A stretch of 13,322 nucleotides of DNA, from NCBI GenBank assembly GCA_043816965.1, contig JBDRHK010000005.1:1-13322 (forward strand), given 5' to 3'. How positions within the stretch are numbered: the first letter of the stretch is position 1; every line of letters starts with the position of its first letter. Below, piece after piece: positions 1 to 13,322 of the stretch. The translations under genes were made by a program, and so were the position numbers. The notes below the pieces were generated by a model that did not search any database, was not told the DNA's origin, and saw only the letters and a list, made by a program, of their open reading frames with translations. Source of the DNA: Candidatus Iainarchaeum sp. (lineage in GTDB: Archaea; Iainarchaeota; Iainarchaeia; Iainarchaeales; JAFCCJ01).

Positions 1-75
1 GGTTTTCCCAATAAGATCCTTATTGCAGCAGGCGAGAACAACATTCTCCTGTATTCTGTGGATTTTTGCCAGCAA
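1..75 (-). CDS. DUF424-family protein, N-terminal part (runs off the window)
   Basis: Manual translation from TTG at 75, 2 nt after the aIF2-beta stop: MLAKIHRIQENVVLACCNKDLIGKT. This resembles the DUF424 N-terminus (xKxH...vlAxCDxeLlGk), a family often found next to aIF2-beta in archaea. Not in the ORF track. Confidence 0.7.
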   Translation of the reverse strand, partial: MLAKIHRIQENVVLACCNKDLIGKT

Positions 76-77
76 AA

Positions 78-482
78 TCAGACCCTCTTTACAGGGGACA
101 GGGCGCCGCAGGCATCGCATTTCATCATCCTTATTCCCTGCTGTTCAATAAATTTGGTGTCTGGCTTATGGCACTCATGGCAAAGCACATACTGCGTAAT
201 ATATGCGTGGAAAAACTTGTTTATCTGGTCATTGGTAAATTTAGAATTTAGCAGGAGTTTACCCTCTGAAACAACCGCCGAGGTTGCGGTTTCTTTGGTC
301 AAATACTTGAGAAGATGCCTTTCCTCCCGGTGAAGTGATTTCAGCACCTGCGCAAAATTATTCACGGCCGTTTTCTTTCCCTGAATATGGCTCTGCATTT
401 CAGGCATCTCAAATCTTTCCTTGCTCAGTGCCTCTTTCGGCAGGAGCATATAAGCCCTGTCCAGCATTTTCTCATATTCCAT
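78..482 (-). CDS. eif2b: Translation initiation factor 2 subunit beta (aIF2-beta)
   Basis: 134 aa; N-terminal YEKMLDRAY...ERFEMP; C-terminal zinc ribbon CHECHKPDT...CDACGA. Confidence 0.96.
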   Translation of the reverse strand: MEYEKMLDRAYMLLPKEALSKERFEMPEMQSHIQGKKTAVNNFAQVLKSLHREERHLLKYLTKETATSAVVSEGKLLLNSKFTNDQINKFFHAYITQYVLCHECHKPDTKFIEQQGIRMMKCDACGALSPVKRV

Positions 483-605
483 TAGACCACTTAAGAATTT
501 TTGCAGGGGATTGGTTAAAAAGCTTTGGTAGTTGGTTTTAGGAGTTGGGAGCCCGGGGCAAAGTTATTAATACTCTGGGGAATTATTATTTCAGCGGTTG
601 TTTTT

Positions 606-1208
606 ATGAAGAAAGAAAAAAAACAGGAAAACGGCTTCAGGAATATTTTAATAATTGGGGCAATTGCGATAATTTTCATTGCCGCAATAATATATGTTGC
701 CCAGACAAACCCGGGCCTGATGCAGGAAATGGTCGATAAATACGGCCTCCTTGGAATTTTCCTCGCATCACTGATTGCAAACGCAAGCCTTTTCTTCCCG
801 CTCCCTGTTGATTTTGTTGTTTTCTCAATAGGCCTGGTTTCTGACAACTGGGTTTACTCACTCATAATCGGAATAGTTGCCGGGACGGGTGCCGCGTTTG
901 GGGAAATGACCGGATATATCCTTGGCCTTTTCGGGGTAAAGGCTGCTGAAAAAATCAAGGAAACAAAATTCTACCGCATTAAGGAAATCAGCAGTAAAAT
1001 CAAGAATTCAGGGATGATTTTCATTTTCCTCGGGGCGTTCACTCCCTTCCCTTTTGATATTATTGGAATTGCCGCAGGCCTGATGAAGTACGATATAAGG
1101 AGATTCTTTATCGCCGTTCTTGCGGGAAAATTGGTTAGGTACACAATTCTCGCCATGGCAGGAGTTGTGGGAATTGAAGTTGTAAAATGGTTTTTTGGAT
1201 TGGGTTAG
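606..1208 (+). CDS. DedA/VTT (SNARE-associated) family membrane protein
   Basis: Hydrophobic; motifs GLLGIFLASLIANASLFFPLP, GAAFGEMTGYILG, FTPFPFDIIGIAAG, FFIAVLAGKLVRY. ATG at 606 preferred over the track's TTG at 525 (same frame) because a TTATTAAT TATA-like box lies at about 564-571. Confidence 0.88.
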   Translation: MKKEKKQENGFRNILIIGAIAIIFIAAIIYVAQTNPGLMQEMVDKYGLLGIFLASLIANASLFFPLPVDFVVFSIGLVSDNWVYSLIIGIVAGTGAAFGEMTGYILGLFGVKAAEKIKETKFYRIKEISSKIKNSGMIFIFLGAFTPFPFDIIGIAAGLMKYDIRRFFIAVLAGKLVRYTILAMAGVVGIEVVKWFFGLG

Positions 1209-2038
1209 AACCCAACCAATTTCAGAACCACAAATGCCAGCAGCATTAGGATTGTCTGCGGAGGCAGTGCAGGAAGCGCTGTCCCAACCCTTTTTGAAAC
1301 AAAGTTTATGGTCCAAAGTAGGCCGATGAGGGAAGCAATCAGAATCACAACTGGCGGGATGAAATATAGCGGGAATTCCAGAGCAGGATTTAATTTTGCA
1401 GCCCCGAGAAGTGATGCAGAAAAGACAAGGGGAATAACCATGTCCCCTGTTCCCAGCTCGAAGGTGTGCTCCTTTGTTGGGATGGCGTAGGTGAATGATA
1501 AATTTTTTGAGGAAATTGCCTTTGCCATTTTTACCATGTGCTTTGTTTTGAACACCGCAATAAAATCATAAACTGAAAGCAGAATCATGAAAATTATCAC
1601 AGGAATTATGCCCAATGAAACACCAAGCAATGCTCCAACAACAGCTGTTGAAATAATTGATGTCGCATTCCTGAGCCAGATATGTTTTGCGAAAACAATC
1701 CTCAGTAGAACTATTAGCAAAGATAGTGGAACTACTAGAAGTGAATCGTAGAATGTGGAAAACAATAGGGCGCTTGTTATGAAGATTATAAAAGATTCGA
1801 GAGCTTTGAAAACATAGTAAAGCCATTTTTCGGGAAAAAAGCGAATTACGATAATCCAGAAAAGCGCCCCTCCCAAAACAACAGCTATCAAATAAATGCT
1901 GTTAATTGGATCGCCAGGATCTTCAGAAATAAATGTGACTGTTACCTCTTCAGCAATAAAAAAATTCGCAGTCCATAAGCCAATCAGCTGGGTGACGATG
2001 AAAAGTGCCGCCAGGGAGAGTATTAATTTCCTGTTCAT
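1205..2038 (-). CDS. Presenilin/signal-peptide-peptidase family intramembrane aspartyl protease
   Basis: Multi-pass membrane protein with all three family motifs: YD (LSVYDFIAV), GxGD (ELGTGDMVIP) and PAL (ALPALPP). Confidence 0.93.
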   Translation of the reverse strand: MNRKLILSLAALFIVTQLIGLWTANFFIAEEVTVTFISEDPGDPINSIYLIAVVLGGALFWIIVIRFFPEKWLYYVFKALESFIIFITSALLFSTFYDSLLVVPLSLLIVLLRIVFAKHIWLRNATSIISTAVVGALLGVSLGIIPVIIFMILLSVYDFIAVFKTKHMVKMAKAISSKNLSFTYAIPTKEHTFELGTGDMVIPLVFSASLLGAAKLNPALEFPLYFIPPVVILIASLIGLLWTINFVSKRVGTALPALPPQTILMLLAFVVLKLVGF

Positions 2039-2083
2039 GGCAATAATTGGGGAGAAAGGAATTAAAACAGTTTTCCCTAGCCG

Positions 2084-2266
2084 CTAAAGTTTGAAGTAAA
2101 AACTGTAACAAAACCCCAGCAGGAAAATCACTATTGCCCCTGTGTTTGTGAAAACCCATGGCCCGAAACTAACCCCGAAAAGCATTAATGCAACAAGCCC
2201 TGTATAACCTATTATTGCCATCAAAATCCCCCGCACCAAATTGCTGAGTATGTCCATCTTTTTCAC
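2084..2266 (-). CDS. Small hypothetical membrane protein (2 TM, 60 aa)
   Basis: Two hydrophobic segments. ATGA start/stop overlap with the upstream ORF at 2263-2266 suggests translational coupling. Confidence 0.65.
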   Translation of the reverse strand: MKKMDILSNLVRGILMAIIGYTGLVALMLFGVSFGPWVFTNTGAIVIFLLGFCYSFYFKL

Positions 2267-2622
2267 CCCAAAATAATTATTGAAAGTATGAATGAACCAT
2301 ACATCTGCAGTTCATTTATGAAAATCAAATACTTTTTCAAATACTTGTTGTTCTCCACCAATGCAAGCACCGCTATTTTTGTAATGTAATAAATAAGCAA
2401 AGTGCCCCCGACAAAAAGTGGAATCCCTATAACCTTCTCAAAATCAAGGAAGGCGAAAAGTGTGATGAAAATCACAATAGAACCCTTCAGCACTTTCTTG
2501 CCCTCAAGGAAGATAAAAAACACCGCGAAAAGCATGAAAGTAATCATCACACTGTTTGTGGCCAGGCCTATAAACCAGCCCAGGTCAAGGGCATACAAAT
2601 GGCCAATTATTTCCAGCAACAT
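2263..2622 (-). CDS. Hypothetical membrane protein (about 4 TM, 119 aa)
   Basis: Strongly hydrophobic ORF; AAGTGA SD-like motif upstream; divergent from the Lrp gene across an AT-rich spacer. Confidence 0.75.
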   Translation of the reverse strand: MLLEIIGHLYALDLGWFIGLATNSVMITFMLFAVFFIFLEGKKVLKGSIVIFITLFAFLDFEKVIGIPLFVGGTLLIYYITKIAVLALVENNKYLKKYLIFINELQMYGSFILSIIILG

Positions 2623-2690
2623 TTTTATTCACTTTTTCCAGTTATAAGATAATTGCATTCTTTCTAATATTTAAAATATTTTATTGTTTT

Positions 2691-2738
2691 TTTTATCAAA
2701 TAGAAGTATTTAAATACATTTATTTACTTTTGATAAAA
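2691..2738. promoter_or_regulatory. Palindromic TATA box flanked by a 10-bp inverted repeat (candidate Lrp promoter/operator)
   Basis: GTATTTAAATAC perfect palindrome at 2706-2717, about 25 bp before ATG 2740 (leaderless spacing). TTTTATCAAA (2691-2700) and TTTGATAAAA (2729-2738) are exact reverse complements. Confidence 0.55.
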
Positions 2739-2739
2739 T

Positions 2740-3735
2740 ATGGCTGATTTAAACATAGACCTAAAAGACAGGAAAATCCTCTATGAACTGGATGTAAATG
2801 CAAGGCAGTCCCTCTCCAAAATCGCGAAAAAAGTCGGTTTAAGCAAGGAAGTGGTGAACTACAGAATCAACAGGATGATTGATGAAAAGCTGATAAGGAG
2901 TTTTTACGCGAGAATTGACACCTCAAAACTTGGTTTGACGCTTTTCAGGACTTTCATAAGAACCCAGAACCTTTCGCCGAAAAAGGAAAACGAGATGATT
3001 GAATATTTAAAAGGCAATCCAAAGATTGGTTTTTTTGTCAGGGTGGAAGGGAACTTTGATTTCAATTTCATTTACTGGTCAAAAGGGGTTTCAGAATATT
3101 TCCATTTCTGGCGGGAGTTCAAGGGGAAGTTTGGAAAATTCCTTGAGAGCAAACAGCTACATATCCTCGAATACTTTGCGAATTTCCCAAAGGGATTTCT
3201 AATCGGAAAAAAGGACCTCTCAATACCTTTTTTCGAGTGCGGCCTGAACAGGGAAATTGAAATCGACAGGGCAGATTACGAACTCCTCAACATCCTGGCA
3301 ACTGACGCAAGGAAACCGTTGATTGAGATTGCGCAGGAACTGAAAATTTCAGACAAGATGGTTTCCTACAGGATTAAGAAACTTGAGAAATTGGGGGTAA
3401 TCCATTCTTACGGGGTTCAGATTGATCTCGATAAAATAGGGTTGAATTATTATATGATTCACCTATTCTTCAAGGATTTCTCTGAGGAAAGGTTTAAGGA
3501 ACTGAAAAATTTCGCAATTACCCACCCATCCGTAGTGTACATTGATGAGGCGCTGGGAGGGCCTGATTTTGAGATAGAACTTTATATGCAAACAAAGCAG
3601 GAATACTATGAATTTCTCACTGAACTGAGATATAAATTTTCGGATTTGATAAGGGATTTCAGGACACTGCATTATCCTGAGGAATTCAAATTGGTCCTTT
3701 TCCCCTGGAAAGGGCAGACTATTCAAAAAGGCTAG
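2740..3735 (+). CDS. Lrp/AsnC family transcriptional regulator with two tandem wHTH-RAM units
   Basis: Unit 1: DLKDRKILYELDVNARQSLSKIAKKVGLSKEVVNYRINRM. Unit 2: IDRADYELLNILATDARKPLIEIAQELKISDKMVSYRIKKLEKLGVI. Each is followed by a RAM-like domain. Confidence 0.92.
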   Translation: MADLNIDLKDRKILYELDVNARQSLSKIAKKVGLSKEVVNYRINRMIDEKLIRSFYARIDTSKLGLTLFRTFIRTQNLSPKKENEMIEYLKGNPKIGFFVRVEGNFDFNFIYWSKGVSEYFHFWREFKGKFGKFLESKQLHILEYFANFPKGFLIGKKDLSIPFFECGLNREIEIDRADYELLNILATDARKPLIEIAQELKISDKMVSYRIKKLEKLGVIHSYGVQIDLDKIGLNYYMIHLFFKDFSEERFKELKNFAITHPSVVYIDEALGGPDFEIELYMQTKQEYYEFLTELRYKFSDLIRDFRTLHYPEEFKLVLFPWKGQTIQKG

Positions 3736-4372
3736 TGCCAATTCTCACCATTGTCGCCCCCTCTTCTACAGCGACAGCAAAATCATTGCTCATTCCCATA
3801 GAAAGTTCAGGCAGATTAAATTTCTCCCCCAATTCCTTCAGTGCAGAAAAATATCTCCTAGTTTCTTCTGCCCCCACAAGTGGGGCCATTGCCATAAAAC
3901 CTTGTAAATCCAAATTTCTCATTTTTTTAATCTCCCCAACAACATCCCCCAATTTCTCAGGCTCCAGGCCATACTTGCTCTTCTCCCCACTAACATTAAC
4001 CTCCAGCAGAATTTTCTGCCTTTTTCCAATTTCAGAAGCGGCGGAATCAATCTTAGCTGCAAGTTTTAATGAATCAACTGAATGAATCCATTCACAGTTC
4101 TCGACCGCTTTTCTGGCCTTGTTGGACTGCAGATGCCCTACAAAGTGCCAGTTAACCCCCTCAACAGAATCAACCTTTCCCAGCAATTCCTGCAATTTGT
4201 TTTCCCCGAGATCCCTTACGCCCAAGGAAATAAGTTCATTAATCTTGCCAATGGAACGGTTTTTTGTTACGGCAACAAGTTTAACCTCTTCAGGATTCCT
4301 GCCGGCCTTTTTGCAGGCTTCTGCAATCCCTTCCCTAATTGCAGAAAGATTTTCCCCTAGCATCAGATTCAC
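3719..4372 (-). CDS. yggS: YggS/PROSC pyridoxal-phosphate homeostasis protein
   Basis: LVAVTK (PLP lysine), GENKLQE, WHFVGHLQSNK, LSMGMSND, GATMVRIGT. GTG start overlaps the mcm stop (GTGA); an in-frame ATG at 4363 is the alternative start. Confidence 0.95.
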   Translation of the reverse strand: MNLMLGENLSAIREGIAEACKKAGRNPEEVKLVAVTKNRSIGKINELISLGVRDLGENKLQELLGKVDSVEGVNWHFVGHLQSNKARKAVENCEWIHSVDSLKLAAKIDSAASEIGKRQKILLEVNVSGEKSKYGLEPEKLGDVVGEIKKMRNLDLQGFMAMAPLVGAEETRRYFSALKELGEKFNLPELSMGMSNDFAVAVEEGATMVRIGTSLFE

Positions 4373-7300
4373 TGTTTGGCGGTTGGCTTTACAACGCCAT
4401 GTCTTGGCCTGTAAATATCCCCTGACTTCTCAAGCTTGCTGAGAATCTCCCTGACCTTTTCTGAATCAATCCCCTCAGTTTTTGATTCCTCAACAATATC
4501 CTCAATAGGAACCATCCCGTCATCTATCTCTGTAGATTTGCTCCTAATCATCCTAAGTATTTTTTTCAGATTTGTTATCTGGGTATGTGTCTGCCCTGAT
4601 GTAATAATATCAATATCAATCTTGCCTGTTTCAGGGTCTGTAACAACTTCCTGCAGGGAAGTCTTCACCAACCTTATTGCCCTTTCGGCATCCCGAATTT
4701 CCACAGTATTGCTAAGCCTGACCCTTGCGCTTGCCTCACTTAACCTAACTAACCCTTCCAATTGCCTGTGGGTTGCCGCGTAACTTCCTTCCTTCCTTCC
4801 TTGGTCACGCAGACTTATGTAGAAGTCAGAGAGTGCCTGTATGGATTCCTGGGTCAGAACCGGAAAAATATTCTGCCTTGCAAAGGAAAGATATTTTTTG
4901 AACAGGTCAGCGTCAATTGCAGGAGTTATACTTTTCTCCAGCTCTTTCCTATCCTCAGCACTCATCTTCTTTTTCATCTTCTTCTCGAGCCACATCTTTT
5001 CCCCTATCTGGTGTGTTTTCAAAATGTGCCTGGCAATGTCCTCGTCCTTCTTTCGATCCAACACATCCTTTAGCATGAAGAAGAGGTCGAACCTTGAAAT
5101 AAGTGTCGGGGGCAAATTTATCTGCTCAATGAAAGACATGAATTGGTCAAAGCGGCTGAATTTTGGATTGGCCGCCGCAAGAACACTTGTTTCTGTCTTG
5201 AAGGTTGTCACAATCCCTGCCTTTGCAACCGAAATCCTCTGCTGCTCCAGGGATTCATGCAGCGCGCTCCTGTCCTCGGCATCCATTTTATCCAGCTCAT
5301 CAATCAGGCAAATTCCGCCGTTAGCCAGTACCAAAGCTCCGGCCTTTAATGTCCATCCCCCTTCCCCAAAATCATCCTTAACGGCAGTTGCAGAAATTCC
5401 CGCACCACTAGAAGTTTTTCCCGCGATGTAAATGGATTTCGGGGCAATCTTATCTACAGCCATCAGCAACTGGGAGTTATGTGAAAAAACCATATTGGAA
5501 ATGAAATTATGGGTTCCTGCAACCTCTAAATCATAAACCCAATCAGCTGGCTCAATTTCCTTAACTTCCCTGACTTTATCCCAAAAAATGCTTGTTTTGG
5601 AAAGCTTGTAAAGGTTTAGGGCCTTTTCCTCAATTTCTTTATCAAACAGATTCCTGTTAAAATAGGCCTCTATCAGGCGATTGGCAATTAAAAGTAATTG
5701 TTCTCTTGAAGGGTTTCTATCTCCCCTTTCGTAGTGCCGATAACTAGTTCTTGCAACACCCATTTCGAATTGCGTTAAACCAATTTTTTTTCTCAAAAAC
5801 TTTAATTCCTTGTTTAGATTTGGCACAACATCGTTGTTAGTATTAAAAAGTTTTGAATTAAGTATTTTCTCCTTTGCTTTCTTGATTTTTCTTCCCGAAA
5901 TAAAACCCACAGTTTTCACATATTTTTTCGCAAATTTGCCGCCAATTGTAAGTTTGAAATACTTTCTTTTAATTTTCTTGGTTGTGTTGGTGGCCATATT
6001 CCAAATTTCTTTCTTTACAGATACAATCTCAAATCTGGATAGTAGGATAATAAGCCCATCAATTAATTCCTCGCTGGCGGAAGATATTTCAATAAATCTA
6101 CAATCGTTCCTAACACTTCCCTCTGTTTCAATAAATACCTTCAGAAATTCCTTAACAACACTGTCGGGAGATGACATTATTGAATTCGGAATTGTTCTTT
6201 GCCTAGACAGCCTTGAAAGCTCTACGAAATTTTTTTCAATAAATTCCCCAAGTTCTACGCTAGAAAACATGATCCTTGTTGCGTTGCTCTTGAAATCTCT
6301 GCAATGTTTTATTCCAAATAACTCCTCAGCGCATTCAACAAAGTCATCAACTACTTCCTTATCACTGTTTGTAAATTCCAACGCGACTGTTGAATGTTTT
6401 TTGTTAATATGGCCCTCCGCAAGCATATAACCAACAACCCTCGCTAGTTTTTCATCCAGAACTTCAGGAGTAAGAATATGTCTTGCGTTTGTTTTTCCCA
6501 GAGTAATCTTTGTGTCAAGTTTTTGGACAGCCCCCTTAACTGTGACCGTCCTGGGTATGGCAATAAAATCCCCCTTTTTTAAGTCCATGGTTTTGACGGC
6601 CTTCACCTTTCCCCCAACAGATGCAAAAAGGGGATGGGTATGGGTTGCTTTAATTTCTTTTCCTGTAGATGTCTTCACAAAGAACATTCTGTCAGGCCTT
6701 CTTTTCATTGCCCTGACGGCAACACCTCTCTCAAGCTCACAATCCCCGTTCAAAATTGGCAATCTTTTAAAAGTGTTTGAAAAAAAGCCGTCATCCAATT
6801 TCTGTCTTTCTCCTTCCAGACTTTCTTCAACCAAATCTTTAATTTCCTTGGAAGTTCCATCTTCGAGCAATAATTTTGTTGAACCATCAACGCATTTCGC
6901 CAAACCCGGGTCACCAACAAGCAAGATATGGATATTCCCTCTCAGCTTGTTATCTCCTGGGAGGACCTTTCTTACCCCCCCAAACAGCTGCAGGGCAATT
7001 GCCTCCTTAATCATTTCATGCCCGTAAATTGTCTGGGCAATGCTCTTGACCAGCAGTTCGTAAATATCCGGCTTTGCCGCAAGCTCCCTAATCAGTTTCT
7101 CATCTTCAGGTGTAATCTCAATATCCTCAAACTCCTGCATGGTTTCCTCTATATGCAGTGCCTCAAGATATCTCCCATAGATTGTTTTCTTGTCCTTTGG
7201 GGGAATAAGCCTCAATATCCCGCTTATCCTTGTCCTGTCCCCCGGGGAAACCTGGTTTACCAAATCATCGCTGACATAAATATCCAAAGTTGCGGCCTGT

Positions 7301-7908
7301 TCATTTCCCTTAAGCATCTCAAGTGGCTCCTGGGTTTTTATTTTTTGATAATCAACAAACTCAGACTCCTCTGACACCAAATTGAAAGAGCGGTGCTTGC
7401 ACTCGCAGATGTAAGGCGGCTTTGATTGGTGGTCGCTCTGGGGGATTTTGTAGGTATTGCCACAGCGGGTGCATTCCCATGTCGCCATTTTAAGCTTAGG
7501 CATTACTTCGGTTAACTGGCCAACAACACCCTCAACAGAAATCAGTTTCCCGAGGTGGGATGCACTGATATTCCTCAGCAATGGCTGCTGCTCTTTGGGA
7601 AGGTTAAAGACCCTTATGTGCGGGGAAAAGTCCTCCAGTTCCAGGGCAGGAACGTCGATGTTCTTTATCGCCTCCTTTGCGGCCTCAAGAACATAGTCAG
7701 GGTTTATGAGCAGCTCATCAGCCAGCTCAAAATCAAACAGTTCAATATCCTTGAAATCAATGGGGAGGCTCCTTTTTTGCGGATAATTCTCCACAAGCCT
7801 CTGGATATCCTTTATGCACTTCTCTTTCAGGAAAGCCTCAATTTTCGGGATAAATGGATTTGAGGCATCGGTTTCAGTTTTCTCGGCAAATTCCAATCTT
7901 ACACCCAT
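4369..7908 (-). CDS. mcm: MCM replicative helicase precursor containing one intein
   Basis: Zn finger CTRC...CEC; Walker A GDPGLAK/S split by the intein; Walker B CLIDELDKM; AAANP; arginine finger SRFDL; C-terminal wHTH. About 706 aa after intein removal. ATG at 7908 chosen; the track starts at TTG 7911. Confidence 0.97.
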   Translation of the reverse strand: MGVRLEFAEKTETDASNPFIPKIEAFLKEKCIKDIQRLVENYPQKRSLPIDFKDIELFDFELADELLINPDYVLEAAKEAIKNIDVPALELEDFSPHIRVFNLPKEQQPLLRNISASHLGKLISVEGVVGQLTEVMPKLKMATWECTRCGNTYKIPQSDHQSKPPYICECKHRSFNLVSEESEFVDYQKIKTQEPLEMLKGNEQAATLDIYVSDDLVNQVSPGDRTRISGILRLIPPKDKKTIYGRYLEALHIEETMQEFEDIEITPEDEKLIRELAAKPDIYELLVKSIAQTIYGHEMIKEAIALQLFGGVRKVLPGDNKLRGNIHILLVGDPGLAKCVDGSTKLLLEDGTSKEIKDLVEESLEGERQKLDDGFFSNTFKRLPILNGDCELERGVAVRAMKRRPDRMFFVKTSTGKEIKATHTHPLFASVGGKVKAVKTMDLKKGDFIAIPRTVTVKGAVQKLDTKITLGKTNARHILTPEVLDEKLARVVGYMLAEGHINKKHSTVALEFTNSDKEVVDDFVECAEELFGIKHCRDFKSNATRIMFSSVELGEFIEKNFVELSRLSRQRTIPNSIMSSPDSVVKEFLKVFIETEGSVRNDCRFIEISSASEELIDGLIILLSRFEIVSVKKEIWNMATNTTKKIKRKYFKLTIGGKFAKKYVKTVGFISGRKIKKAKEKILNSKLFNTNNDVVPNLNKELKFLRKKIGLTQFEMGVARTSYRHYERGDRNPSREQLLLIANRLIEAYFNRNLFDKEIEEKALNLYKLSKTSIFWDKVREVKEIEPADWVYDLEVAGTHNFISNMVFSHNSQLLMAVDKIAPKSIYIAGKTSSGAGISATAVKDDFGEGGWTLKAGALVLANGGICLIDELDKMDAEDRSALHESLEQQRISVAKAGIVTTFKTETSVLAAANPKFSRFDQFMSFIEQINLPPTLISRFDLFFMLKDVLDRKKDEDIARHILKTHQIGEKMWLEKKMKKKMSAEDRKELEKSITPAIDADLFKKYLSFARQNIFPVLTQESIQALSDFYISLRDQGRKEGSYAATHRQLEGLVRLSEASARVRLSNTVEIRDAERAIRLVKTSLQEVVTDPETGKIDIDIITSGQTHTQITNLKKILRMIRSKSTEIDDGMVPIEDIVEESKTEGIDSEKVREILSKLEKSGDIYRPRHGVVKPTAKQ
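5476..6894 (-). mobile_element. Intein (473 aa) with LAGLIDADG homing endonuclease and XRE-like HTH, inserted in MCM Walker A between Lys and Ser
   Basis: N-junction AK|CVDGST; block B IKATHTHPLF; LAGLIDADG-like helices VVGYMLAEG and FLKVFIETEG; block F VYDLEVAGTHNF; C-junction SHN|SQLL. Confidence 0.95.
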
Positions 7909-7926
7909 CAATTTGGCATTAAGCCA

Positions 7927-7941
7927 CTTATAAACACTTTC
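7927..7941 (-). promoter_or_regulatory. Putative BRE-TATA promoter of mcm
   Basis: Minus strand reads GAAAGTG-TTTATAAG; the TATA box (7934-7927) lies 19-26 bp upstream of the mcm ATG. Confidence 0.5.
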
Positions 7942-8118
7942 GGAGGTGGATTTCCGGTGCGGACAACTGCCATATCAGTTGACACTACGGCCTATACTGC
8001 GTATAGGCCTTGCTCGCCCTATGGGCTCGCTACACGCCTATCTGCGTGTACACGACCACCCCTGTTTTGCGCCCTGTTGGGCACTCGCAGGGATATTGCT
8101 CACCTTATGGGCTCGCTA
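7941..8118 (-). ncRNA. Unidentified GC-rich multi-hairpin element (ncRNA or structured ssDNA)
   Basis: 57% GC by hand count over 7941-8120 versus 24% over 8161-8250. Closely spaced hairpins at 8098-8116, 8058-8094, 8031-8050, 8012-8030, 7989-8009, 7964-7981, and a weaker one at 7941-7956. G-T wobbles and tandem G.A pairs favour the minus strand. Confidence 0.55.
8010..8118. repeat. 23-bp direct repeat pair inside the hairpin element
   Basis: TTGCTCGCCCTATGGGCTCGCTA (8010-8032) versus TTGCTCACCTTATGGGCTCGCTA (8096-8118): 21 of 23 identical. Confidence 0.9.
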
Positions 8119-8148
8119 AATGACCTTTAACTTGATACCCCACCATCT

Positions 8149-8176
8149 ATTTGTATTGGGAGAATTTGTATTGGGA
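8149..8176. repeat. Tandem 13-bp direct repeat ATTTGTATTGGGA x2
   Basis: Exact copies at 8149-8161 and 8164-8176 (15-bp period), at the edge of an AT-rich tract. Confidence 0.85.
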
Positions 8177-8273
8177 ATTTAATGCGAATTCTGGAAAAAT
8201 TTCCAAAAAATCAATTCTATATTAATATGTCTGGAAAATTATTAACCCTACTCAGTTAGGAATCTGAACTTTG

Positions 8274-8318
8274 TCAATTACATTCCCATCGGAATAATTC
8301 GTTGGATTTAACCTTCAT
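8274..8318 (-). CDS. Possible 14-aa micro-ORF MKVKSNELFRWECN
   Basis: Strong SD GGAGGTGG (8330-8323) just upstream of ATG 8318; mirror image of the plus-strand SD-ATG at 8462-8480. Confidence 0.3.
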   Translation of the reverse strand: MKVKSNELFRWECN

Positions 8319-8482
8319 CCCACCACCTCCAATAGAGAATTTTTTCTAAGGACTCTGATTTTTCGGCTTAAACCTTTGCACGCCTAATCTCTAATTTTGG
8401 TGCAAAGGATTTAATGCCTCCAAAATCAGCAGAGACGTCCACGAAAAAATTCATTATTCTTGGAGGTGGTTTGATTGATGAA
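8314..8482. repeat. ~170-bp interrupted inverted repeat (back-to-back promoter/UTR/SD modules, or a long hairpin)
   Basis: Nested complementary blocks: TTCATC 8314/GATGAA 8477; ACCACCTCCAA 8322/TTGGAGGTGGT 8460; GAATTTTTT 8337/AAAAAATTC 8444; GGAC 8350/GTCC 8437; CTGATTTT 8355/AAAATCAG 8422; GGC-TTAAA 8365/TTTAA-T-GCC 8410; CCTTTGCAC 8373/GTGCAAAGG 8400; 18-nt central spacer. Confidence 0.9.
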
Positions 8483-8609
8483 TTTTCCAAATTTTCAACT
8501 TCCCACAATGGAAGAGATTAGAATGGCTGAAGAATCGGCCAGAACAAATCCGGAAAACCTAACAGACAGGGAACTCTGGATTCTGAAAGAGGTAGGAGGT
8601 GATTTCTGA
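8478..8609 (+). CDS. Small acidic hypothetical protein, 43 aa (MNFPNFQLPTMEEIRMAEESARTNPENLTDRELWILKEVGGDF)
   Basis: SD GGAGGTGG at 8462-8469, ATG 8478, purine-rich coding-like composition. Its TGA overlaps the next ATG (TGATG). Confidence 0.6.
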   Translation: MNFPNFQLPTMEEIRMAEESARTNPENLTDRELWILKEVGGDF

Positions 8610-8674
8610 TGCTTTACCGCATCGGAAACCTACTCCCGAAATGCAATATAAATAAATTTTTGGTGATTAGATAG
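8609..8674 (+). CDS. Possible 21-aa micro-ORF (MLYRIGNLLPKCNINKFLVIR) or truncated gene remnant
   Basis: Perfect SD GGAGGTGA at 8595-8602; TGATG coupling; TAG ends at the SD-like GGGGCGA of the endonuclease gene. Confidence 0.4.
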   Translation: MLYRIGNLLPKCNINKFLVIR

Positions 8675-8686
8675 GGGCGAATTTGC

Positions 8687-9775
8687 ATGAGTAAGAAAAT
8701 TGAGATTGATGAATCAGTTCTTGAAGATCTTTATTTGGAGGAAAAGAAATCCAGTTATGAGATTGCCAAGATTTTCAACTGTGACTCAACAGTTATTCAA
8801 AGAAGGCTGAAAGAACACAGAATCGAATTGAGACAACCAAAGAAGAGAATAGACATTCCAAAAGAAGTGTTAGAGAAACTTTATTGGACTGAAAATCTCT
8901 CAACTTACAAAATATCTAAAAAGTTAGGTATTGGCAGGACAACAATTTGGAGCAAATTAGATGAATTAAACATTGAGAGAAGGAAACTTAAGCGGGTTCC
9001 AATTTCAAAGGAAACATTGAATAATCTTTATTGGGATCGGCGATTGTGCGCTAGAGAAATTGGAGAAATCTACAACGTATCCCATTCAGTTATTTTAGAT
9101 AAGTTATACAAAAACGGCATAAGAACAAGGGATACTGGGGAAGCCGGAGAAATTTATCCAAAAACAGATTTCTCAGGCGATTTAGAAGAAAAAGCGCATA
9201 TGATTGGTTTCAGATTAGGTGATTTATATTGTATTCGAATGAGCCCAAGATTGGTTAGAGTTTCATCCAATACTACAAAAAAAGCACAGTTGAAATTGAT
9301 GAAGGATGTTTATGGGGGATATGGGCGACCTTGGATTAAAGAATATTCAGGCACGTTCAATTTTCACTGTCACCTAAATAACACCTTTTCCTTCTTAGTG
9401 CCTAAAAAGGACAGGATTGAAAGATGGATTCTTAAGAACAATAATTATTTTTGTGCCTTTTTTGCAGGCTATGTTGATGCTGAAGGAACAATTAAGATTT
9501 ATAACAAACGAGCCAGATTTAGAGTAGGCTCTTACGATAAAGGGCTTTTGAAAGATGCCTCTGGGAAATTGACAGAGTTTGGAATCAGGCACACTTACCG
9601 AATCGATTCCTTTAAGGGTAAGAATCAGAATAGTGATTTTTGGAGGATTGGAATATGTGAAAAGCAATCCCTATTAAAAGTTTTTAACCTAATAGGACCA
9701 TATATGAAACATGGGGATAGGCTGAAAGACCTTGAAAATGCCAAAGATAATGTTATTCAGAGATTAAAAAAATGA
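8687..9775 (+). CDS. Free-standing double-motif LAGLIDADG homing endonuclease with three N-terminal HTH-like repeats
   Basis: Three ~50-aa repeats (I..E.LE.LY..E..S.YEI.K.....T.I...L....I..R), then motif 1 AHMIGFRLGDL and motif 2 FFAGYVDAEGTI. No intein splice residues. Confidence 0.88.
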   Translation: MSKKIEIDESVLEDLYLEEKKSSYEIAKIFNCDSTVIQRRLKEHRIELRQPKKRIDIPKEVLEKLYWTENLSTYKISKKLGIGRTTIWSKLDELNIERRKLKRVPISKETLNNLYWDRRLCAREIGEIYNVSHSVILDKLYKNGIRTRDTGEAGEIYPKTDFSGDLEEKAHMIGFRLGDLYCIRMSPRLVRVSSNTTKKAQLKLMKDVYGGYGRPWIKEYSGTFNFHCHLNNTFSFLVPKKDRIERWILKNNNYFCAFFAGYVDAEGTIKIYNKRARFRVGSYDKGLLKDASGKLTEFGIRHTYRIDSFKGKNQNSDFWRIGICEKQSLLKVFNLIGPYMKHGDRLKDLENAKDNVIQRLKK

Positions 9776-9791
9776 AGGGGGTGAAGCGGCT

Positions 9792-11946
9792 ATGAAGTTT
9801 TATGTGACAACTGCAATAGATTATCCATCTTCTAAGCCCCATCTTCGGCCATGCCTATGAGAAAACGGTTAGCGATGTCCAGGCAAGATGGCACAAATTG
9901 AAGGGGGAAGAGGTATTTTTCCTTACAGGGACCGATGAGCATGGGATGAAAATCCAGCGTGCTGCTGAAAAGGAAGGGAAGAAGCCCAAGGAATTTGTGG
10001 ATGAAAAAACTGCACTCTTCAAGGAATTGTGCAAAAAATGGAACATTTCCTACGACCGCTTCATAAGAACAACAGATAAGCAACACGAGAAAGTCTGCCA
10101 GGAAATTTTCCAGAAAGTTCTCGATAAGGGAGATATCTATTTAGGAAATTATGAAGGGCTTTACTGCACTGATTGTGAAAGGTTTTATTTGGAGAAGGAT
10201 TTAATCGGTGGTTTGTGCCCAATTCATAAAAAACCTGCCGAGAATGTGAAGGAGCCGAGTTATTTTTTCAAGATGGGCAAATACCAGAAACAGTTGCTGG
10301 ATTATTTTGATAAGAATCCTGATTTCATTTCTCCAAGATCTAGGAGGCAGGAAATTATTAACAGGGTAAATGAAGGACTACTTGATTTAAGCGTAAGCAG
10401 GGCAACCTTCGACTGGGGAATCCCCTTATCCAACGATGGAAAACACGTAATTTACTGTTGGTTTGATGCCCTTCTCAATTATATTTCGGGAATTGATTAC
10501 GGTACAAAGAAGTTTGATAAATACTGGCCTGCCGATGTGCACAACATTGGCAAAGATATCCTCTGGTTTCACAGCGTTATTTTTCCTATAATGCTTTTCG
10601 CTGCCGGAATCGAGCCCCCGAAAAAAGTTTTTGTCCATGGTTTTATCAACACAGAAACCGGGGAGAAAATGTCAAAAAGTTTGGGAAATGTTATTGACCC
10701 AATTGCTTTGGCAAATGAGTTTGGCGTTGACCCTGTTCGTTATTTCCTCCTGCGTGAGATTCCTTTTGGCGAAGATGGCTTCTTTTCACTTAGCGGTCTT
10801 GCCACCAGAAACAACAACGAGCTCGCAAATGAGTTAGGCAATTTACTGAACAGGACAATTGTTCTGATTGAAAAAAACTACAAAGGAAAAATCCCGGCAG
10901 GAAAAACTGACTCAGAATTGCAGAAAAAACTGGATTTGAAAAAGATTGAAAAATTATTGGACAAGTTCGAACTGCACACCGCGCTCGGGGAAATTTTCGT
11001 ATTCATCTCAGCCTGCAACAAATACATCAATGATAAGGAGCCCTGGAAATTGAAGGGAAAGGAACTGGACAATGTCCTCTATGGCCTTGCAGATTCGCTC
11101 AGAATAATTTCCATCCTCATCTCCCCCTTTATCCCAAACAGTTCTGAGGAAATTAACAAACAATTGGGAGTAAATACAGGTTTACTGAAAGATTGTAAAT
11201 TCAATCTCCTTAAAGCAGGGACAAAAGTGAAAAAAGGGGAAGTTTTGTTTAAAAAAATTGAAATTAAGGAAGAAGTTGGGCCAAAAGCAAGGGAAATTTC
11301 GGTTACTGTTGACCCTGAAATGAAAAACCTGGATTTCAAATTGGTTGCGGCAGTTATTGAGGGGGTGAAGGTAAAGAAAAAGCACATGGGCCTTGAGAAA
11401 GCAAAAAAGGATGTTGTTGATAACACAGACATCCATAAGATTGAGAAGACAGATATTGTGAAAGGGTATTTGGAATTGTATGATGCAATTGGGGTGAAGA
11501 GAGAAGAGCATGCGGTAAAGAATCTGGTTGAGATTTCGAAAAAAGGCGGGAAACTTCCCACCATCAACACTGTTGTCGATTCCTATAATTTAGTTTCCCT
11601 TGACAAGCTGGTTATTGTCGGCGCGCACGATTTGGAAAAAATAAATGGAAATATCCGAATCAAGATTGCCAAGGGAGATGAACTCTACATCCCCCTCGGA
11701 AATGACAAACCAATGAAAATTCAAAAAGGGGAGTATGTTTTTGTTGATGATAAGGTTGTTTTATGCAGGCTGGATGTGAAACAGGGGGAGCATACAAAGG
11801 TCACCCCAACAACGAGGAATGTTTTCCTTTATGTGCAAGGAAATAAATACACCTCTCAAGAATATATTGAGAAAGCGATGAAAGAAGCCATTGATAACAT
11901 CACAAAATACTGCGGTGGAAAGGCAAAAAGCCTAAACGTCAAATAG
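9792..11946 (+). CDS. metG: Methionyl-tRNA synthetase (single-knuckle MetRS1 type) with C-terminal B3/B4 domain; needs a +1 frame change at 9843-9847
   Basis: SD GGGGTGA at about 9778-9784. ATG 9792 gives MKFYVTTAIDYPSSKPHL; the +1 frame from 9847 gives GHAYEKTVSDVQARWHKLKGEEVFFLTGTDEHG and joins the track ORF at 9898. Also CTDC...CPIH knuckle, YCWFDALLNY, IGKDI and KMSKS (10666-10680). 717 aa if joined. Confidence 0.95.
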
Positions 11947-12694
11947 AGTTCACAATTTTTTCGGTAACTTTTTTCGCGGCAACTAATCCTTTCCCATCCT
12001 CATCCTTTTCAGGATTAAATTCCACCAAATCTATGGCCCTGACTTTTCCTGACAAAAAAACAAGCCCAATCAGTTCCAGCAATTGGTCCACACTTAATCC
12101 GCCCCTTTCCAGATAACCTGTCGCGGGAAAAATTTTCGGGTCAAGAACATCCAAATCAATTGAAAGGTAAATGTGATTTTGTTCCTCAACAAAATTTTTC
12201 ATTTCAATTTTCGCCTTATCAAAATCATTATGGATTTTCCTGGAATTAATTGCCTTAATTCCCTTTTCCTCCAGAAATTCCTGTTCCTGTTCCCAGATTT
12301 TCCTTAATCCCACAAGCAGCAGTTTTTCCTTTTCAAGCAACCCGTCATCAATAAGCTCCCTGTTCATGTCCTCATGCGATACAGGCTTTATCCCCTTCAT
12401 TGCATCTGCATGGGCATCAAAAACAATCAGGGAAGAATTCTCAAAATTTTCTGAAAAAGCCCTGAACAGGGAATAGGTGATTGAATGGTCCCCGCCCATG
12501 AAAAATGGATTCTCCCTAATAACTTCCCTTGCTTTTGAATAAACATTCCCATCAGTTGCAACAATATCGCCTGCAACTACCTCTACTTCCTCCCCCTCAA
12601 CACCCAGCTCCCTGCACAAAACCTCAGGCGCCTTCTCACAGCCCAGATTTTTATCAAGCGAACCCTGCGAGGATGGGATTTTTATTATTTTCAT
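11939..12694 (-). CDS. speB: Arginase/agmatinase (ureohydrolase) family protein, probably agmatinase
   Basis: GGDHS, DAHAD, SIDLDVLDP, ATG...GGL and DLVEFNP metal-binding motifs. Lies directly downstream of aIF5A, a common archaeal pairing. Substrate cannot be proven from sequence. Confidence 0.8.
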   Translation of the reverse strand: MKIIKIPSSQGSLDKNLGCEKAPEVLCRELGVEGEEVEVVAGDIVATDGNVYSKAREVIRENPFFMGGDHSITYSLFRAFSENFENSSLIVFDAHADAMKGIKPVSHEDMNRELIDDGLLEKEKLLLVGLRKIWEQEQEFLEEKGIKAINSRKIHNDFDKAKIEMKNFVEEQNHIYLSIDLDVLDPKIFPATGYLERGGLSVDQLLELIGLVFLSGKVRAIDLVEFNPEKDEDGKGLVAAKKVTEKIVNSI

Positions 12695-12734
12695 AATAGG
12701 AAAGAATTCAATTCAATAGAAAAAGTTATTGCGA

Positions 12735-13130
12735 TTACTTCTTCCTCAAAATTTTAATATGGTCCCCGAACTGGATGTATTCCACTTCTGAGCCGGACTG
12801 CAAGCCAGTAACATCCTTTGGCTTCTGCACATCAAAAGTCACATAGGAACTCATATCCATTATCTGCATAGAGTCCCCCATTACGGCAACAACCTGGCCA
12901 TTTCCCCTGTTGATAATTGGAATCTCAATATCTGCGGAGGTTGGCTTTAACAAATTCCTCTTCTGACCTGAAAAAATACCAATTGCAACAATCCTCACCT
13001 TCGCAGAACCATGCTTCCCTGGCTTGCTTTTCTCGACCGTTTTCACCTGGCAGACATCGTCCTCAATAAGGACATAATTGCCCGGTTTCAACTGCCCTGC
13101 AGGCCCGAATTTCTTCTCAATTTCCGTCAT
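12735..13130 (-). CDS. eif5a: Translation factor aIF5A
   Basis: 131 aa with the hypusine loop SKPGKHGSAK. Confidence 0.97.
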   Translation of the reverse strand: MTEIEKKFGPAGQLKPGNYVLIEDDVCQVKTVEKSKPGKHGSAKVRIVAIGIFSGQKRNLLKPTSADIEIPIINRGNGQVVAVMGDSMQIMDMSSYVTFDVQKPKDVTGLQSGSEVEYIQFGDHIKILRKK

Positions 13131-13162
13131 TTCATTTCCCCAAGAAAAAAAGGTAAATAGTG

Positions 13163-13178
13163 TTTAAATAGCTTTTGC
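13163..13178 (-). promoter_or_regulatory. Putative BRE-TATA promoter of aIF5A
   Basis: Minus strand GCAAAAGC-TATTTAAA, 33-40 bp upstream of ATG 13130. Confidence 0.55.
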
Positions 13179-13184
13179 AGGAAC

Positions 13185-13322
13185 GTATCTGCTAACAACT
13201 TATGGCTGTTTTGAGGGTCTGGAATAGGGGTTTTTCTTGTTGTTTCCAGGTGGCAAGCATCGTGTTCACGATGCCCATTGTGTCCGCCCCATGCTCCGCC
13301 CGCAGCCCGCCTATTATTTTGC
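13185..13322 (-). mobile_element. Right end of an IS66-family (ISBst12-like) insertion sequence
   Basis: Contains the transposase-like C-terminus. The element appears to end ...GTTAGCAGATAC (GTATCTGCTAAC on plus from 13185), matching the GTA start of IS66 terminal repeats. GC rises abruptly here. Confidence 0.6.
13192..13322 (-). CDS. IS66-family transposase, C-terminal fragment
   Basis: Manual translation from 13320: KIIGGLRAEHGADTMGIVNTMLATWKQQEKPLFQTLKTAISC*, resembling the RKixGgxRsexGa...sllaTwkqqg tail of IS66 transposases. Not in the ORF track. Confidence 0.68.
   Translation of the reverse strand, partial: KIIGGLRAEHGADTMGIVNTMLATWKQQEKPLFQTLKTAISC

Follow-up and report, generated by a model that had tools for sequence, protein, structure and literature searches.

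Does a methionyl-tRNA synthetase (MetRS) ever carry a proofreading domain of its own? This question is raised by a stretch of DNA of 13,322 nucleotides (nt) from Candidatus Iainarchaeum sp. (assembly GCA_043816965.1, contig JBDRHK010000005.1, positions 1-13,322), hereafter the window, in which a MetRS gene ends in a tail of 218 amino acids (aa) that belongs to the B3/B4 family. The accuracy of MetRS, lysyl-tRNA synthetase (LysRS) and arginyl-tRNA synthetase (ArgRS) relies on their synthetic sites, with MetRS clearing homocysteine before transfer, and to our knowledge all three enzymes are taught as being without a post-transfer editing domain. A preliminary description of the window had likened the tail to the B3/B4 domain of the beta subunit of phenylalanyl-tRNA synthetase (PheRS-beta), and had placed it where MetRS usually carries a tRNA-binding tail with an oligonucleotide-binding (OB) fold. 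We find that the tail is a complete module of the type of CtdA, a free-standing deacylase whose substrate is the arginine analogue canavanine, as canavanyl-tRNA-Arg; that such modules have been fused to synthetases recurrently and independently; and that the chemistry of their pocket follows the synthetase to which they are attached.

A complete CtdA-like module at the end of MetRS

The MetRS gene occupies an open frame of 708 codons on the + strand (9820..11946), in which the longest open reading frame (ORF) with an ATG, GTG or TTG start, 9898..11946, encodes 682 aa. Its identity follows from two Pfam families, tRNA-synt_1g (PF09334, the MetRS catalytic domain, 3.7e-90) and Anticodon_3 (PF19303, the MetRS anticodon-binding domain, 7.7e-10), from two NCBIfam MetRS models whose cut-offs it passes (NF008900 with 602.4 bits against 598, TIGR00398 with 457.3 bits against 336.35), and from the KMSKS motif and the CxxC...CPxH knuckle found in its translation. 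The presence of a B3/B4 tail, proposed earlier by eye, was confirmed by Pfam B3_4 (PF03483), which matches ORF residues 532-673 at 2.8e-23 and 82.9 bits against a gathering cut-off of 29.3, and the 218-aa tail alone at 1.8e-24 and 86.7 bits; the strings on which that proposal had drawn (KGEVLFKKIE, LPTINTVVDSYNLVSL, VGAHDLEKI, GDELYIPLG, GEYVFVDD and TKVTPTTRNVFL) are all present in the translation of the ORF. Pfam gave no match to tRNA_bind (PF01588), the family of the OB-fold tail, in the MetRS ORF at E<=0.01.

When 1.84 billion representative proteins were searched exhaustively with the tail as query, 1598 proteins matched at E<=0.001, the best 150 of which are mostly MetRS fusions or proteins of ~215-235 aa that align across all 218 aa. 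Since the tail spans the whole of these ~220-aa free-standing proteins, it was a whole protein that was fused and not a domain cut from PheRS, and the extent of ~218 aa first assigned to the tail, well beyond the Pfam core, is that of a single module. Searched as a single sequence against solved structures, the tail matched CtdA (9f7e at 1e-8, 9mkl at 5e-7), bacterial PheRS-beta (3e-5) and human or archaeal-type PheRS-beta (0.037), and a profile of 87 relatives matched CtdA over its full length (positions 8-209) at 5.5e-24 and 4e-22, and bacterial PheRS-beta at 6e-10. A model of the tail computed with AlphaFold2 (AF2) from the 87-relative alignment (predicted local distance difference test, pLDDT, 94.7; predicted template-modelling score, pTM, 0.91) includes the CtdA-type helical insert, and Foldseek superposed it on 9f7e and 9mkl with a template-modelling (TM) score of 0.84-0.85 and a root-mean-square deviation of 2.8-2.9 Å over 226-229 columns at ~20% identity, against a TM score of ~0.6 with PheRS-beta chains. 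The likeness to PheRS-beta therefore holds at the level of the Pfam family, but in detail the tail is a complete CtdA-type free-standing deacylase.

The genome of the window (G000, 86%-complete) has an archaeal PheRS of its own (beta subunit TIGR00471, 492.7 bits; alpha subunit NF003210), and pheT_bact gives 44.6 bits with the MetRS ORF, below its cut-off of 402.65. An origin of the tail as a copy of the editing domain of this PheRS-beta was considered and rejected, as the best stretch found by phmmer reached an i-Evalue of 0.0065 over 37 residues.

A full-length AF2 model of the MetRS (51-row alignment) reached a pLDDT of 90.9 and a pTM of 0.68. In it, the ~45 residues from 424 to 468 have one 3-residue helix and one bridge and otherwise no regular secondary structure, with a pLDDT of 77-83 for the block, and we read this predicted unstructured stretch between the anticodon-binding bundle and the tail as a flexible tether. 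Over 51 fused proteins (1275 pairs), the tails share a mean pairwise identity of 46.5% and the cores one of 50.3%, so that, as far as these alignments go, conservation of the tail comes close to that of the catalytic core.

Distribution of the MetRS fusion

The fusion is far from being a peculiarity of one genome, and its carriers range from Iainarchaeota/Diapherotrites to Bathyarchaeota. A word-indexed cluster search with the tail region as query, limited to proteins of 375-1194 aa, found 68 clusters (614-952 aa), one of which is the window's own protein; all list PF03483 and 67 list PF09334, the 68th being a partial protein with the MetRS anticodon domain. Their source labels include Diapherotrites, Woesearchaeota, Nanoarchaeia and Aenigmatarchaeota 'methionine--tRNA ligase', and the fused proteins are thus already in public databases, annotated merely as methionine--tRNA ligase. 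PF01588 is listed as well in 13 of the 68 clusters, and the domain order in Pfam-scanned representatives is MetRS, B3_4, tRNA_bind (in P0090, B3_4 at 605-737 and tRNA_bind at 763-850). The idea that the module stands in place of an OB fold is accordingly right for the window protein but does not extend to the family.

A scan of one genome per GTDB species, using a 12-row tail alignment and two peptide patterns, gave 38 loci, which should be taken as a floor and not as a census. MetRS core and tail share one open frame at 25 of them (in six, the frame runs on for 155-164 aa beyond the tail), 12 hold a stand-alone gene of ~213-270 codons and one a 65-codon fragment. Among the fused records are those of Candidatus Iainarchaeum andersonii, the complete genome CP010424 (archaeon GW2011_AR10), Aenigmatarchaeota, Woesearchaeota, Nanoarchaeia and Bathyarchaeota, with further ones labelled 'uncultured Methanosarcinales'; the stand-alone relatives include Chloroflexia, a Verrucomicrobiaceae bacterium and Thaumarchaeota. 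Within the phylum of the window, 53 of 215 genomes (G000 included) match the tail at E<=1e-5, and ~31 of the 215 have a near end-to-end match in a frame of 479-818 codons or at a contig edge, the MetRS core of these having been checked only where they recur in the other scans.

These numbers also settle whether the fusion might be an artefact confined to this assembly, produced by the loss of a stop codon or by a chimeric contig. The possibility was a general one, and public contigs do not cover the junction (none over 11009-11393), but 68 clusters, 25 of 38 species-genome loci in one frame, the complete genome CP010424 among them, and ~31 of 215 genomes of the phylum already refute it, as they do any notion of an assembly accident.

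Furthermore, the fusion does not appear to have arisen only once. At six fused loci the MetRS cores are 28-31% identical to that of the window and the tails 42-51%, which means that the module sits on two deeply diverged MetRS types. At L056, a Woesearchaeota locus, nt 2489 is both the end of a 712-aa MetRS with tRNA_bind and the start of a separate 220-aa B3_4 gene; the resulting order of MetRS, tRNA_bind and B3_4 differs from the order within the fused proteins and argues for separate events. Among the 33 flanking ORFs scanned at the 12 stand-alone loci, no common context was found except at L056 and L059. The latter has a MetE-like gene two genes downstream of the stand-alone module, a single case to which we give little weight.

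The same module on other synthetases

Scanning the phylum with the tail also matched frames of 771-1044 codons at ~30% identity. Two of these were scanned for domains, and proved to be a class I LysRS with B3_4 (793 aa) and a class I LysRS with B3_4 and an AlaX-like end (1022 aa). A search with the LysRS tail then gave 44 clusters (P0266-P0309; precomputed Pfam), made up of 27 class I LysRS, 12 class II LysRS, three ArgRS, one PF00579 protein (Tyr/Trp-type) and one argininosuccinate lyase. The place of the module varies with the partner: it is N-terminal in 12 class I LysRS and C-terminal or internal in 16 (15 plus P0168), C-terminal in 11 class II LysRS and N-terminal in one, and N-terminal in all four ArgRS if P0147 with its two copies is included. 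The MetRS-type module also occurs together with a YbaK-type editing domain (P0088) and with a GFO-type oxidoreductase.

The history of these attachments was approached with a quick maximum-likelihood tree of 79 identity-filtered rows, from which fragments of <185 residues were dropped (LG+G4, with support from the Shimodaira-Hasegawa-like approximate likelihood-ratio test, SH-aLRT, only). The Lys/Arg tails form a starred sister clade with a support of 96, whose 24 rows comprise 12 class I LysRS, four class II LysRS, four ArgRS, three stand-alone proteins and one Tyr/Trp-type protein, and there is no MetRS row in this clade in the 79-row tree. Outside this clade, the MetRS label requires 12 changes, at least seven of which are forced by starred branches. 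A FastTree of 242 rows agrees with this tree in outline.

Pocket residues follow the partner

The residues of the pocket (Table 1) were equated through HMMER alignments to 9mkl, 9f7e and E. coli PheRS-beta, together with published residue roles; the chain numbering of 9mkl is apparently shifted by +2 against the paper, as judged from the alignment. According to the available text of PMC12449066, the CtdA variants N105A, G116H/W, Q173G and C166G are inactive, and mutagenesis indicates that the size of C166 matters. All four of these residues are kept in the tail, as N100, G111, C159 and Q165, and nearly all of the MetRS-linked tails keep them as well. The tail differs from CtdA at E118 and E191, two acidic residues described as relevant for catalysis in P. 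canavaninivorans CtdA in the accessible part of PMC12268091, which are replaced by H113 and Q183. In the same two motifs, D114 and N185 are conserved in 91 and 89 of the 94 MetRS-linked tails, respectively. In the 87-row tail alignment V96 and Y99 are invariant, and at least 90% of the rows keep L79, P90, I92, N93, D97, N100, A112, H113, D114, G120, E131, P135, D153, C159, T175 and G184. As the pocket of the tail is uncharged, canavanine or arginine is an unlikely substrate.

Table 1. Equivalent pocket residues in the tail, CtdA and E. coli PheRS-beta, and residue counts in tails linked to different synthetases
Tail	CtdA	E. coli PheRS-beta	MetRS-linked (n=94)	Class I LysRS (n=30)	Class II LysRS (n=12)	ArgRS (n=4)
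Y99/N100	Y104/N105	N254	N100 kept in 94
G111	G116	H265	G 90
H113	E118	F267	H 85, Y 8, N 1	D 24, E 5, F 1	D 11, E 1	E 3, D 1
C159	C166	A312	C 84
Q165	Q173	G318	Q 92, E 2	E 29, D 1	E 12	E 3, Q 1
Y181	I189
Q183	E191		Q 87, E 4, F 2, D 1	E 29, D 1	E 12	E 3, D 1

The same three positions at which the MetRS-linked tails carry His, Gln and Gln are acidic in nearly all tails linked to LysRS and ArgRS. In the latter N100 and G111 are invariant and C159 is a Cys in 45 of 46 rows, and the ArgRS pattern can be likened to the E, Q, E of CtdA itself (with position 165 in ArgRS tails being E in three and Q in one). Class I and class II LysRS are not known to share a fold. That one acidic clade is attached, at different ends, to both of them and to ArgRS, with neutral forms attached to MetRS, is hard to explain if the substrate is not tied to the amino acid and the tRNA of the partner. 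A broader picture, to which we would give even chances, is that CtdA-like B3/B4 modules make up a plug-in, partner-matched system of post-transfer editing, attached repeatedly and independently in archaea (mostly DPANN) to MetRS, class I LysRS, class II LysRS, ArgRS and perhaps a Tyr/Trp-type enzyme, with a neutral His/Gln/Gln pocket for an uncharged methionine analogue and an acidic pocket for cationic analogues.

A putative editing role and its rivals

What, then, could the tail do for MetRS? We lean slightly towards the view that it acts as a tethered post-transfer editing domain which would remove an uncharged look-alike of methionine from tRNA-Met, a role that is consistent with the conserved pocket residues and with a pocket chemistry that follows the fused synthetase. 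MetRS would grip tRNA-Met by its anticodon and charge it, and a misacylated 3' end would reach the tethered B3/B4 pocket while still held by the enzyme or when recaptured right after release. There, N100 would position the ester and a water, like N105 in CtdA, and G111 and C159 would set the width of the pocket. Its far end would be lined by H113, Q165, Q183 and N185, which could accept an uncharged, probably polar or linear side chain and exclude methionine; the ester would then be hydrolysed and the tRNA recharged. Hydrolytic activity, action on tRNA-Met and exclusion of methionine are predicted here from sequence, as is the nature of the substrate, for which the candidates include homocysteine, norleucine, ethionine and oxidised methionine, with data that favour none of them. 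There is a precedent for trans editing on tRNA-Met in AlfB, a member of the AlaX family which, according to the available part of PMC13149037, removes 3-hydroxymethionine from tRNA-Met in trans in Alcaligenes.

The position of the tail, which is that of the usual C-terminal appendix of MetRS in a protein without PF01588, invites a different reading, namely that of a non-catalytic tRNA-handling appendix which binds the acceptor or the cognate aminoacyl end, perhaps dimerises, and takes over the role of the Trbp111/EMAPII-like domain. The replacement of E118 and E191 of CtdA would suit such an appendix, a pocket charge that matches the class of the cognate amino acid fits product binding as well, and the S. 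enterica CtdA is a dimer with a positive surface that was proposed to hold the CCA end (accessible parts of PMC12449066 and PMC12268091). We nevertheless consider it rather unlikely, given that B3_4 and tRNA_bind occur together in 13 of the 68 fused clusters, so that the tail is no simple substitute, that the genome already has two free-standing tRNA_bind ORFs, and that a plain RNA-binding surface would need neither N100, present in 94 of 94 MetRS-linked tails, nor pocket-size residues that are near-invariant. The two free-standing ORFs (Trbp111-like, 114 and 129 codons) could supply in trans the OB-fold function that is missing from the MetRS.

Another alternative, which we hold to be unlikely, keeps the tail as an active deacylase but lets it work in trans, on other tRNAs or on Met attached to non-Met tRNAs, with MetRS serving as a tether for co-expression or localisation. 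A long unstructured linker and a pTM of 0.68 fit such a loose tether, close free-standing relatives are common, and the module is also found on partners that are not synthetases (the GFO-type oxidoreductase and argininosuccinate lyase). On the other hand, the acidic pocket on LysRS of both classes and on ArgRS, against the neutral one on MetRS, speaks for a substrate connected with the amino acid and tRNA of the partner itself, and this pattern makes a trans-editor for unrelated tRNAs less likely.

It is important to set out what weighs against an editing role on tRNA-Met. Enzymatic activity is a prediction for the whole clade, and if E118 and E191 serve catalysis and not specificity, the function of the tail may be altered or even lost. 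In the full-length model (pTM 0.68, with the linker unstructured) the tail is not placed on the core with confidence, which gives no support to a defined cis shuttle. The relation between partner and pocket stems mainly from two clades and reflects few evolutionary events, not 140 independent ones, and a domain for binding the cognate aminoacyl end could likewise have acidic pockets on Lys/Arg enzymes and a neutral one on MetRS. The tail is moreover dispensable in close kin, as the same-genus genome G152 has a MetRS frame of 495 codons without it and G102 one of 484 codons without it, and many of the 'stand-alone' rows, being taken from short contigs, may represent parts of fused genes. Finally, the copy in the window is frameshifted in its HIGH motif and might not make an active MetRS.

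A frameshift in the HIGH motif

The last of these points deserves a closer look. The evident start of the MetRS is the ATG at 9792, which opens a frame that reads MKFYVTTAIDYPSSKPHL and stops four codons further on, and the remainder of the protein (GHAYEK...) reads in the frame 9820..11946. An extra base at 9846 thus puts the true start and the rest of the HIGH motif into different frames, with P-H-L in the first and G-H in the second (Table 2). The 82%-identical relative P0002 is intact, with MKFYVTTAIDYPSSQPHLGHAYEK in one frame, and four relatives have the K-P-H-L-G-H codons without the extra base, which lies outside any homopolymer run. Public contigs (Logan) cover 9750-9996 and parts of the gene, and two of them carry identical letters with no differences (X1 record 1, 9762-9901, study P1; X3 record 11, 9750-9996, study P3), at a contig depth of only 2-4.5; one run may be the source sample, and both may share one population.

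Could the gene of the window be a decaying pseudogene, whose tail has no present function in this genome? The split of HIGH between frames would say so, and so would an intact P0002, which indicates that the shift is not conserved, and the agreement of contigs from two studies, which makes it no one-off assembly slip. Yet those two contigs are shallow and may derive from one population, no other MetRS was found in the 86%-complete genome, and apart from the extra base the 708-codon frame is open and aligns with relatives to the last residue with all conserved motifs present. Taken together, we regard decay as quite improbable.

The site itself offers another possibility. The sequence CUU-CGG-C resembles the Ty1 +1 site CUU-AGG-C, and the next codon in the +1 frame at this site is GGC. 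CGG is a rare codon (2.03 per 1000). Of the 22 copies of the heptamer CTTCGGC found in open frames that span at least 250 codons, none is read as CTT-CGG-C, for which codon frequencies would roughly predict ~3, and this is a weak hint at recoding. The frameshift is not conserved in the nearest relative, and expression of an essential gene through +1 ribosomal frameshifting at CUU-CGG-C strikes us as decidedly doubtful. This copy may carry a strain-level lesion or be expressed by a low-level +1 frameshift, and a second gene may have gone unassembled.

Neighbouring genes and further features

Directly upstream of the MetRS gene stands a free-standing ORF with LAGLIDADG_3 and helix-turn-helix (HTH) domains, and the frameshift lies only ~55 nt into the MetRS gene. 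Homologous ORFs or remnants occupy this position upstream of MetRS at L030, L032, L031 and L041, with 34-38% identity over ~300 aa in two of them and fragments in the other two, and the ORF has no paralogue in the genome at E<=1e-5. The ORF has the appearance of a homing-endonuclease gene carried along with the 5' end of metG. A second LAGLIDADG endonuclease with HTH is part of an intein that interrupts the gene of the MCM helicase. No RNA genes were detected by Rfam, either over the whole window at the gathering threshold or over 7850-8750 at E<=1, or by ARAGORN; in the 86%-complete genome as a whole, ARAGORN makes 33 tRNA calls, some of them doubtful.

Downstream, the MetRS gene converges with an arginase-family (agmatinase-like) gene, which adjoins an aIF5A-like gene. 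As for genomic contexts of related proteins, the ykkC riboswitches, which we take to be the guanidine riboswitches of today, would fit the canavanine link of CtdA-1. COG3382, the stand-alone B3/4 family, is listed for Clostridiaceae among the genes under ykkC riboswitches in the accessible part of PMC3766115.

Table 2. Features of the window (coordinates in the window) and related features elsewhere (coordinates in the contig or locus named)
Feature	Position	Strand	Basis or remark
MCM helicase gene interrupted by intein with LAGLIDADG endonuclease and HTH	4369-7974	-	Intein_splicing 5.5e-19, LAGLIDADG_3 1.1e-15
G+C-rich stretch	~7934-8130		In the ~700-nt gap between MCM and LAGLIDADG genes; six-frame translations look non-coding
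Free-standing LAGLIDADG_3 and HTH ORF, 362 aa	8687-9775	+	Ends 17 nt before the MetRS start codon
First 18 MetRS codons (MKFYVTTAIDYPSSKPHL)	9792..9845	+	Other frame than the rest of the gene; matches the N-terminus of intact 82%-identical P0002
One extra base C in the HIGH motif, between Leu and Gly codons (CTT C GGC)	9846	+	+1 shift; alignment to relatives
MetRS catalytic core and anticodon-binding helical domain (rest of HIGH, CxxC...CPxH, KMSKS)	9847..11268	+	Pfam, NCBIfam
End of Lys/Glu-rich linker, no predicted secondary structure	11269..11289	+	AF2; coil at about ORF residues 424-468
Complete CtdA-like B3/B4 module, 218 aa, ORF residues 465-682	11290..11943	+	Pfam, profiles, AF2, Foldseek; Pfam B3_4 core at nt 11491-11916
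Motif Y99-N100 ... G111-A-H113-D114	11584..11631	+	HMMER alignments to 9mkl, 9f7e, 3pco
Motif C159-R ... K-Q165 ... Y181-V-Q183-G-N185	11764..11844	+	Profile alignment, tail counts
MetRS stop codon	11944..11946	+	Overlaps the 3' end of the convergent arginase-family gene
Arginase-family (agmatinase-like) gene	11939..12694	-	3' end overlaps the MetRS stop by 8 nt
Arginase-family and aIF5A-like gene pair	11939-13130	-
Free-standing tRNA_bind ORF	C92:13262-13540	+
Free-standing tRNA_bind ORF	C92:5229-5510	-
Class I LysRS B3/B4 carrier in the phylum, L023	2271-4652	-
Class I LysRS B3/B4 carrier in the phylum, L024	2006-5074	-

Implications and comparison with known systems

The occurrence of the module on MetRS, Lys and Arg enzymes suggests an error correction that has not been described for these enzymes. 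A widespread and conserved deacylase module on MetRS, LysRS and ArgRS would add members to the short list of cis editing domains, and a pocket that tracks the amino acid of its partner, even across the two classes of LysRS, could become a testable handle on the non-protein amino acids that threaten translation in host-dependent DPANN archaea. Natural editing modules of this kind might also be offered for the engineering of MetRS and LysRS systems that incorporate amino acid analogues.

We found no description of a MetRS, LysRS or ArgRS fused to a B3/B4 module in the literature searched, in which 'B3/B4' is not a searchable term and which does not extend to subscription journals. The words MetRS, methionyl, fused and fusion are absent from three CtdA papers, and one supplement of PMC12449066 has 0 occurrences of methionine, methionyl, Diapherotrites, Woesearchaeota and Iainarchaeum. 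The AARS Online table of shared domains of aminoacyl-tRNA synthetases, in its available part, has post-transfer editing only for Ile/Leu/Val and Ala/Thr and no B3/B4 for MetRS (PMC11580382).

Among the systems already known, the B3/B4 domain of PheRS-beta shares with the tail the Pfam family, the basic fold and an Asn (N254 in E. coli), and it sets the precedent of a cis editing site that is reached by the 3' end. The resemblance is nevertheless more distant (6e-10, TM score ~0.6), the tail does not stand among B1, B2 and B5-B8 domains, its host protein is a MetRS, and N254 is the only editing-site residue that is shared, H265, F267, A312 and G318 of E. coli being G, H, C and Q in the tail. 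The Trbp111/EMAPII-like OB-fold tail of MetRS (PF01588) has the same position after the anticodon-binding bundle but an unrelated fold; it is absent from the window protein, lies downstream of B3_4 in the 13 clusters that have both, and occurs free-standing in the genome. AlaX, ThrRS-ed and YbaK illustrate how one deacylase family can be free or fused at either end of different synthetases, but their folds are other ones, and none of them is reported on MetRS, LysRS or ArgRS in the accessible parts of the sources.

The closest known relative is CtdA (P. canavaninivorans 9F7E; S. enterica 9MKL), with which the tail shares the whole fold including the helical insert, a profile match over the full length, and the residues Y104/N105, G116, C166 and Q173. 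The two differ in sequence, with ~20% identity, in the changes of E118 to His and of E191 to Gln, and in that the tail is fused to MetRS while CtdA is free-standing. If the modules described here act as we propose, the CtdA family, discovered recently and so far known for canavanine as its one substrate, would become a modular family of several specificities.

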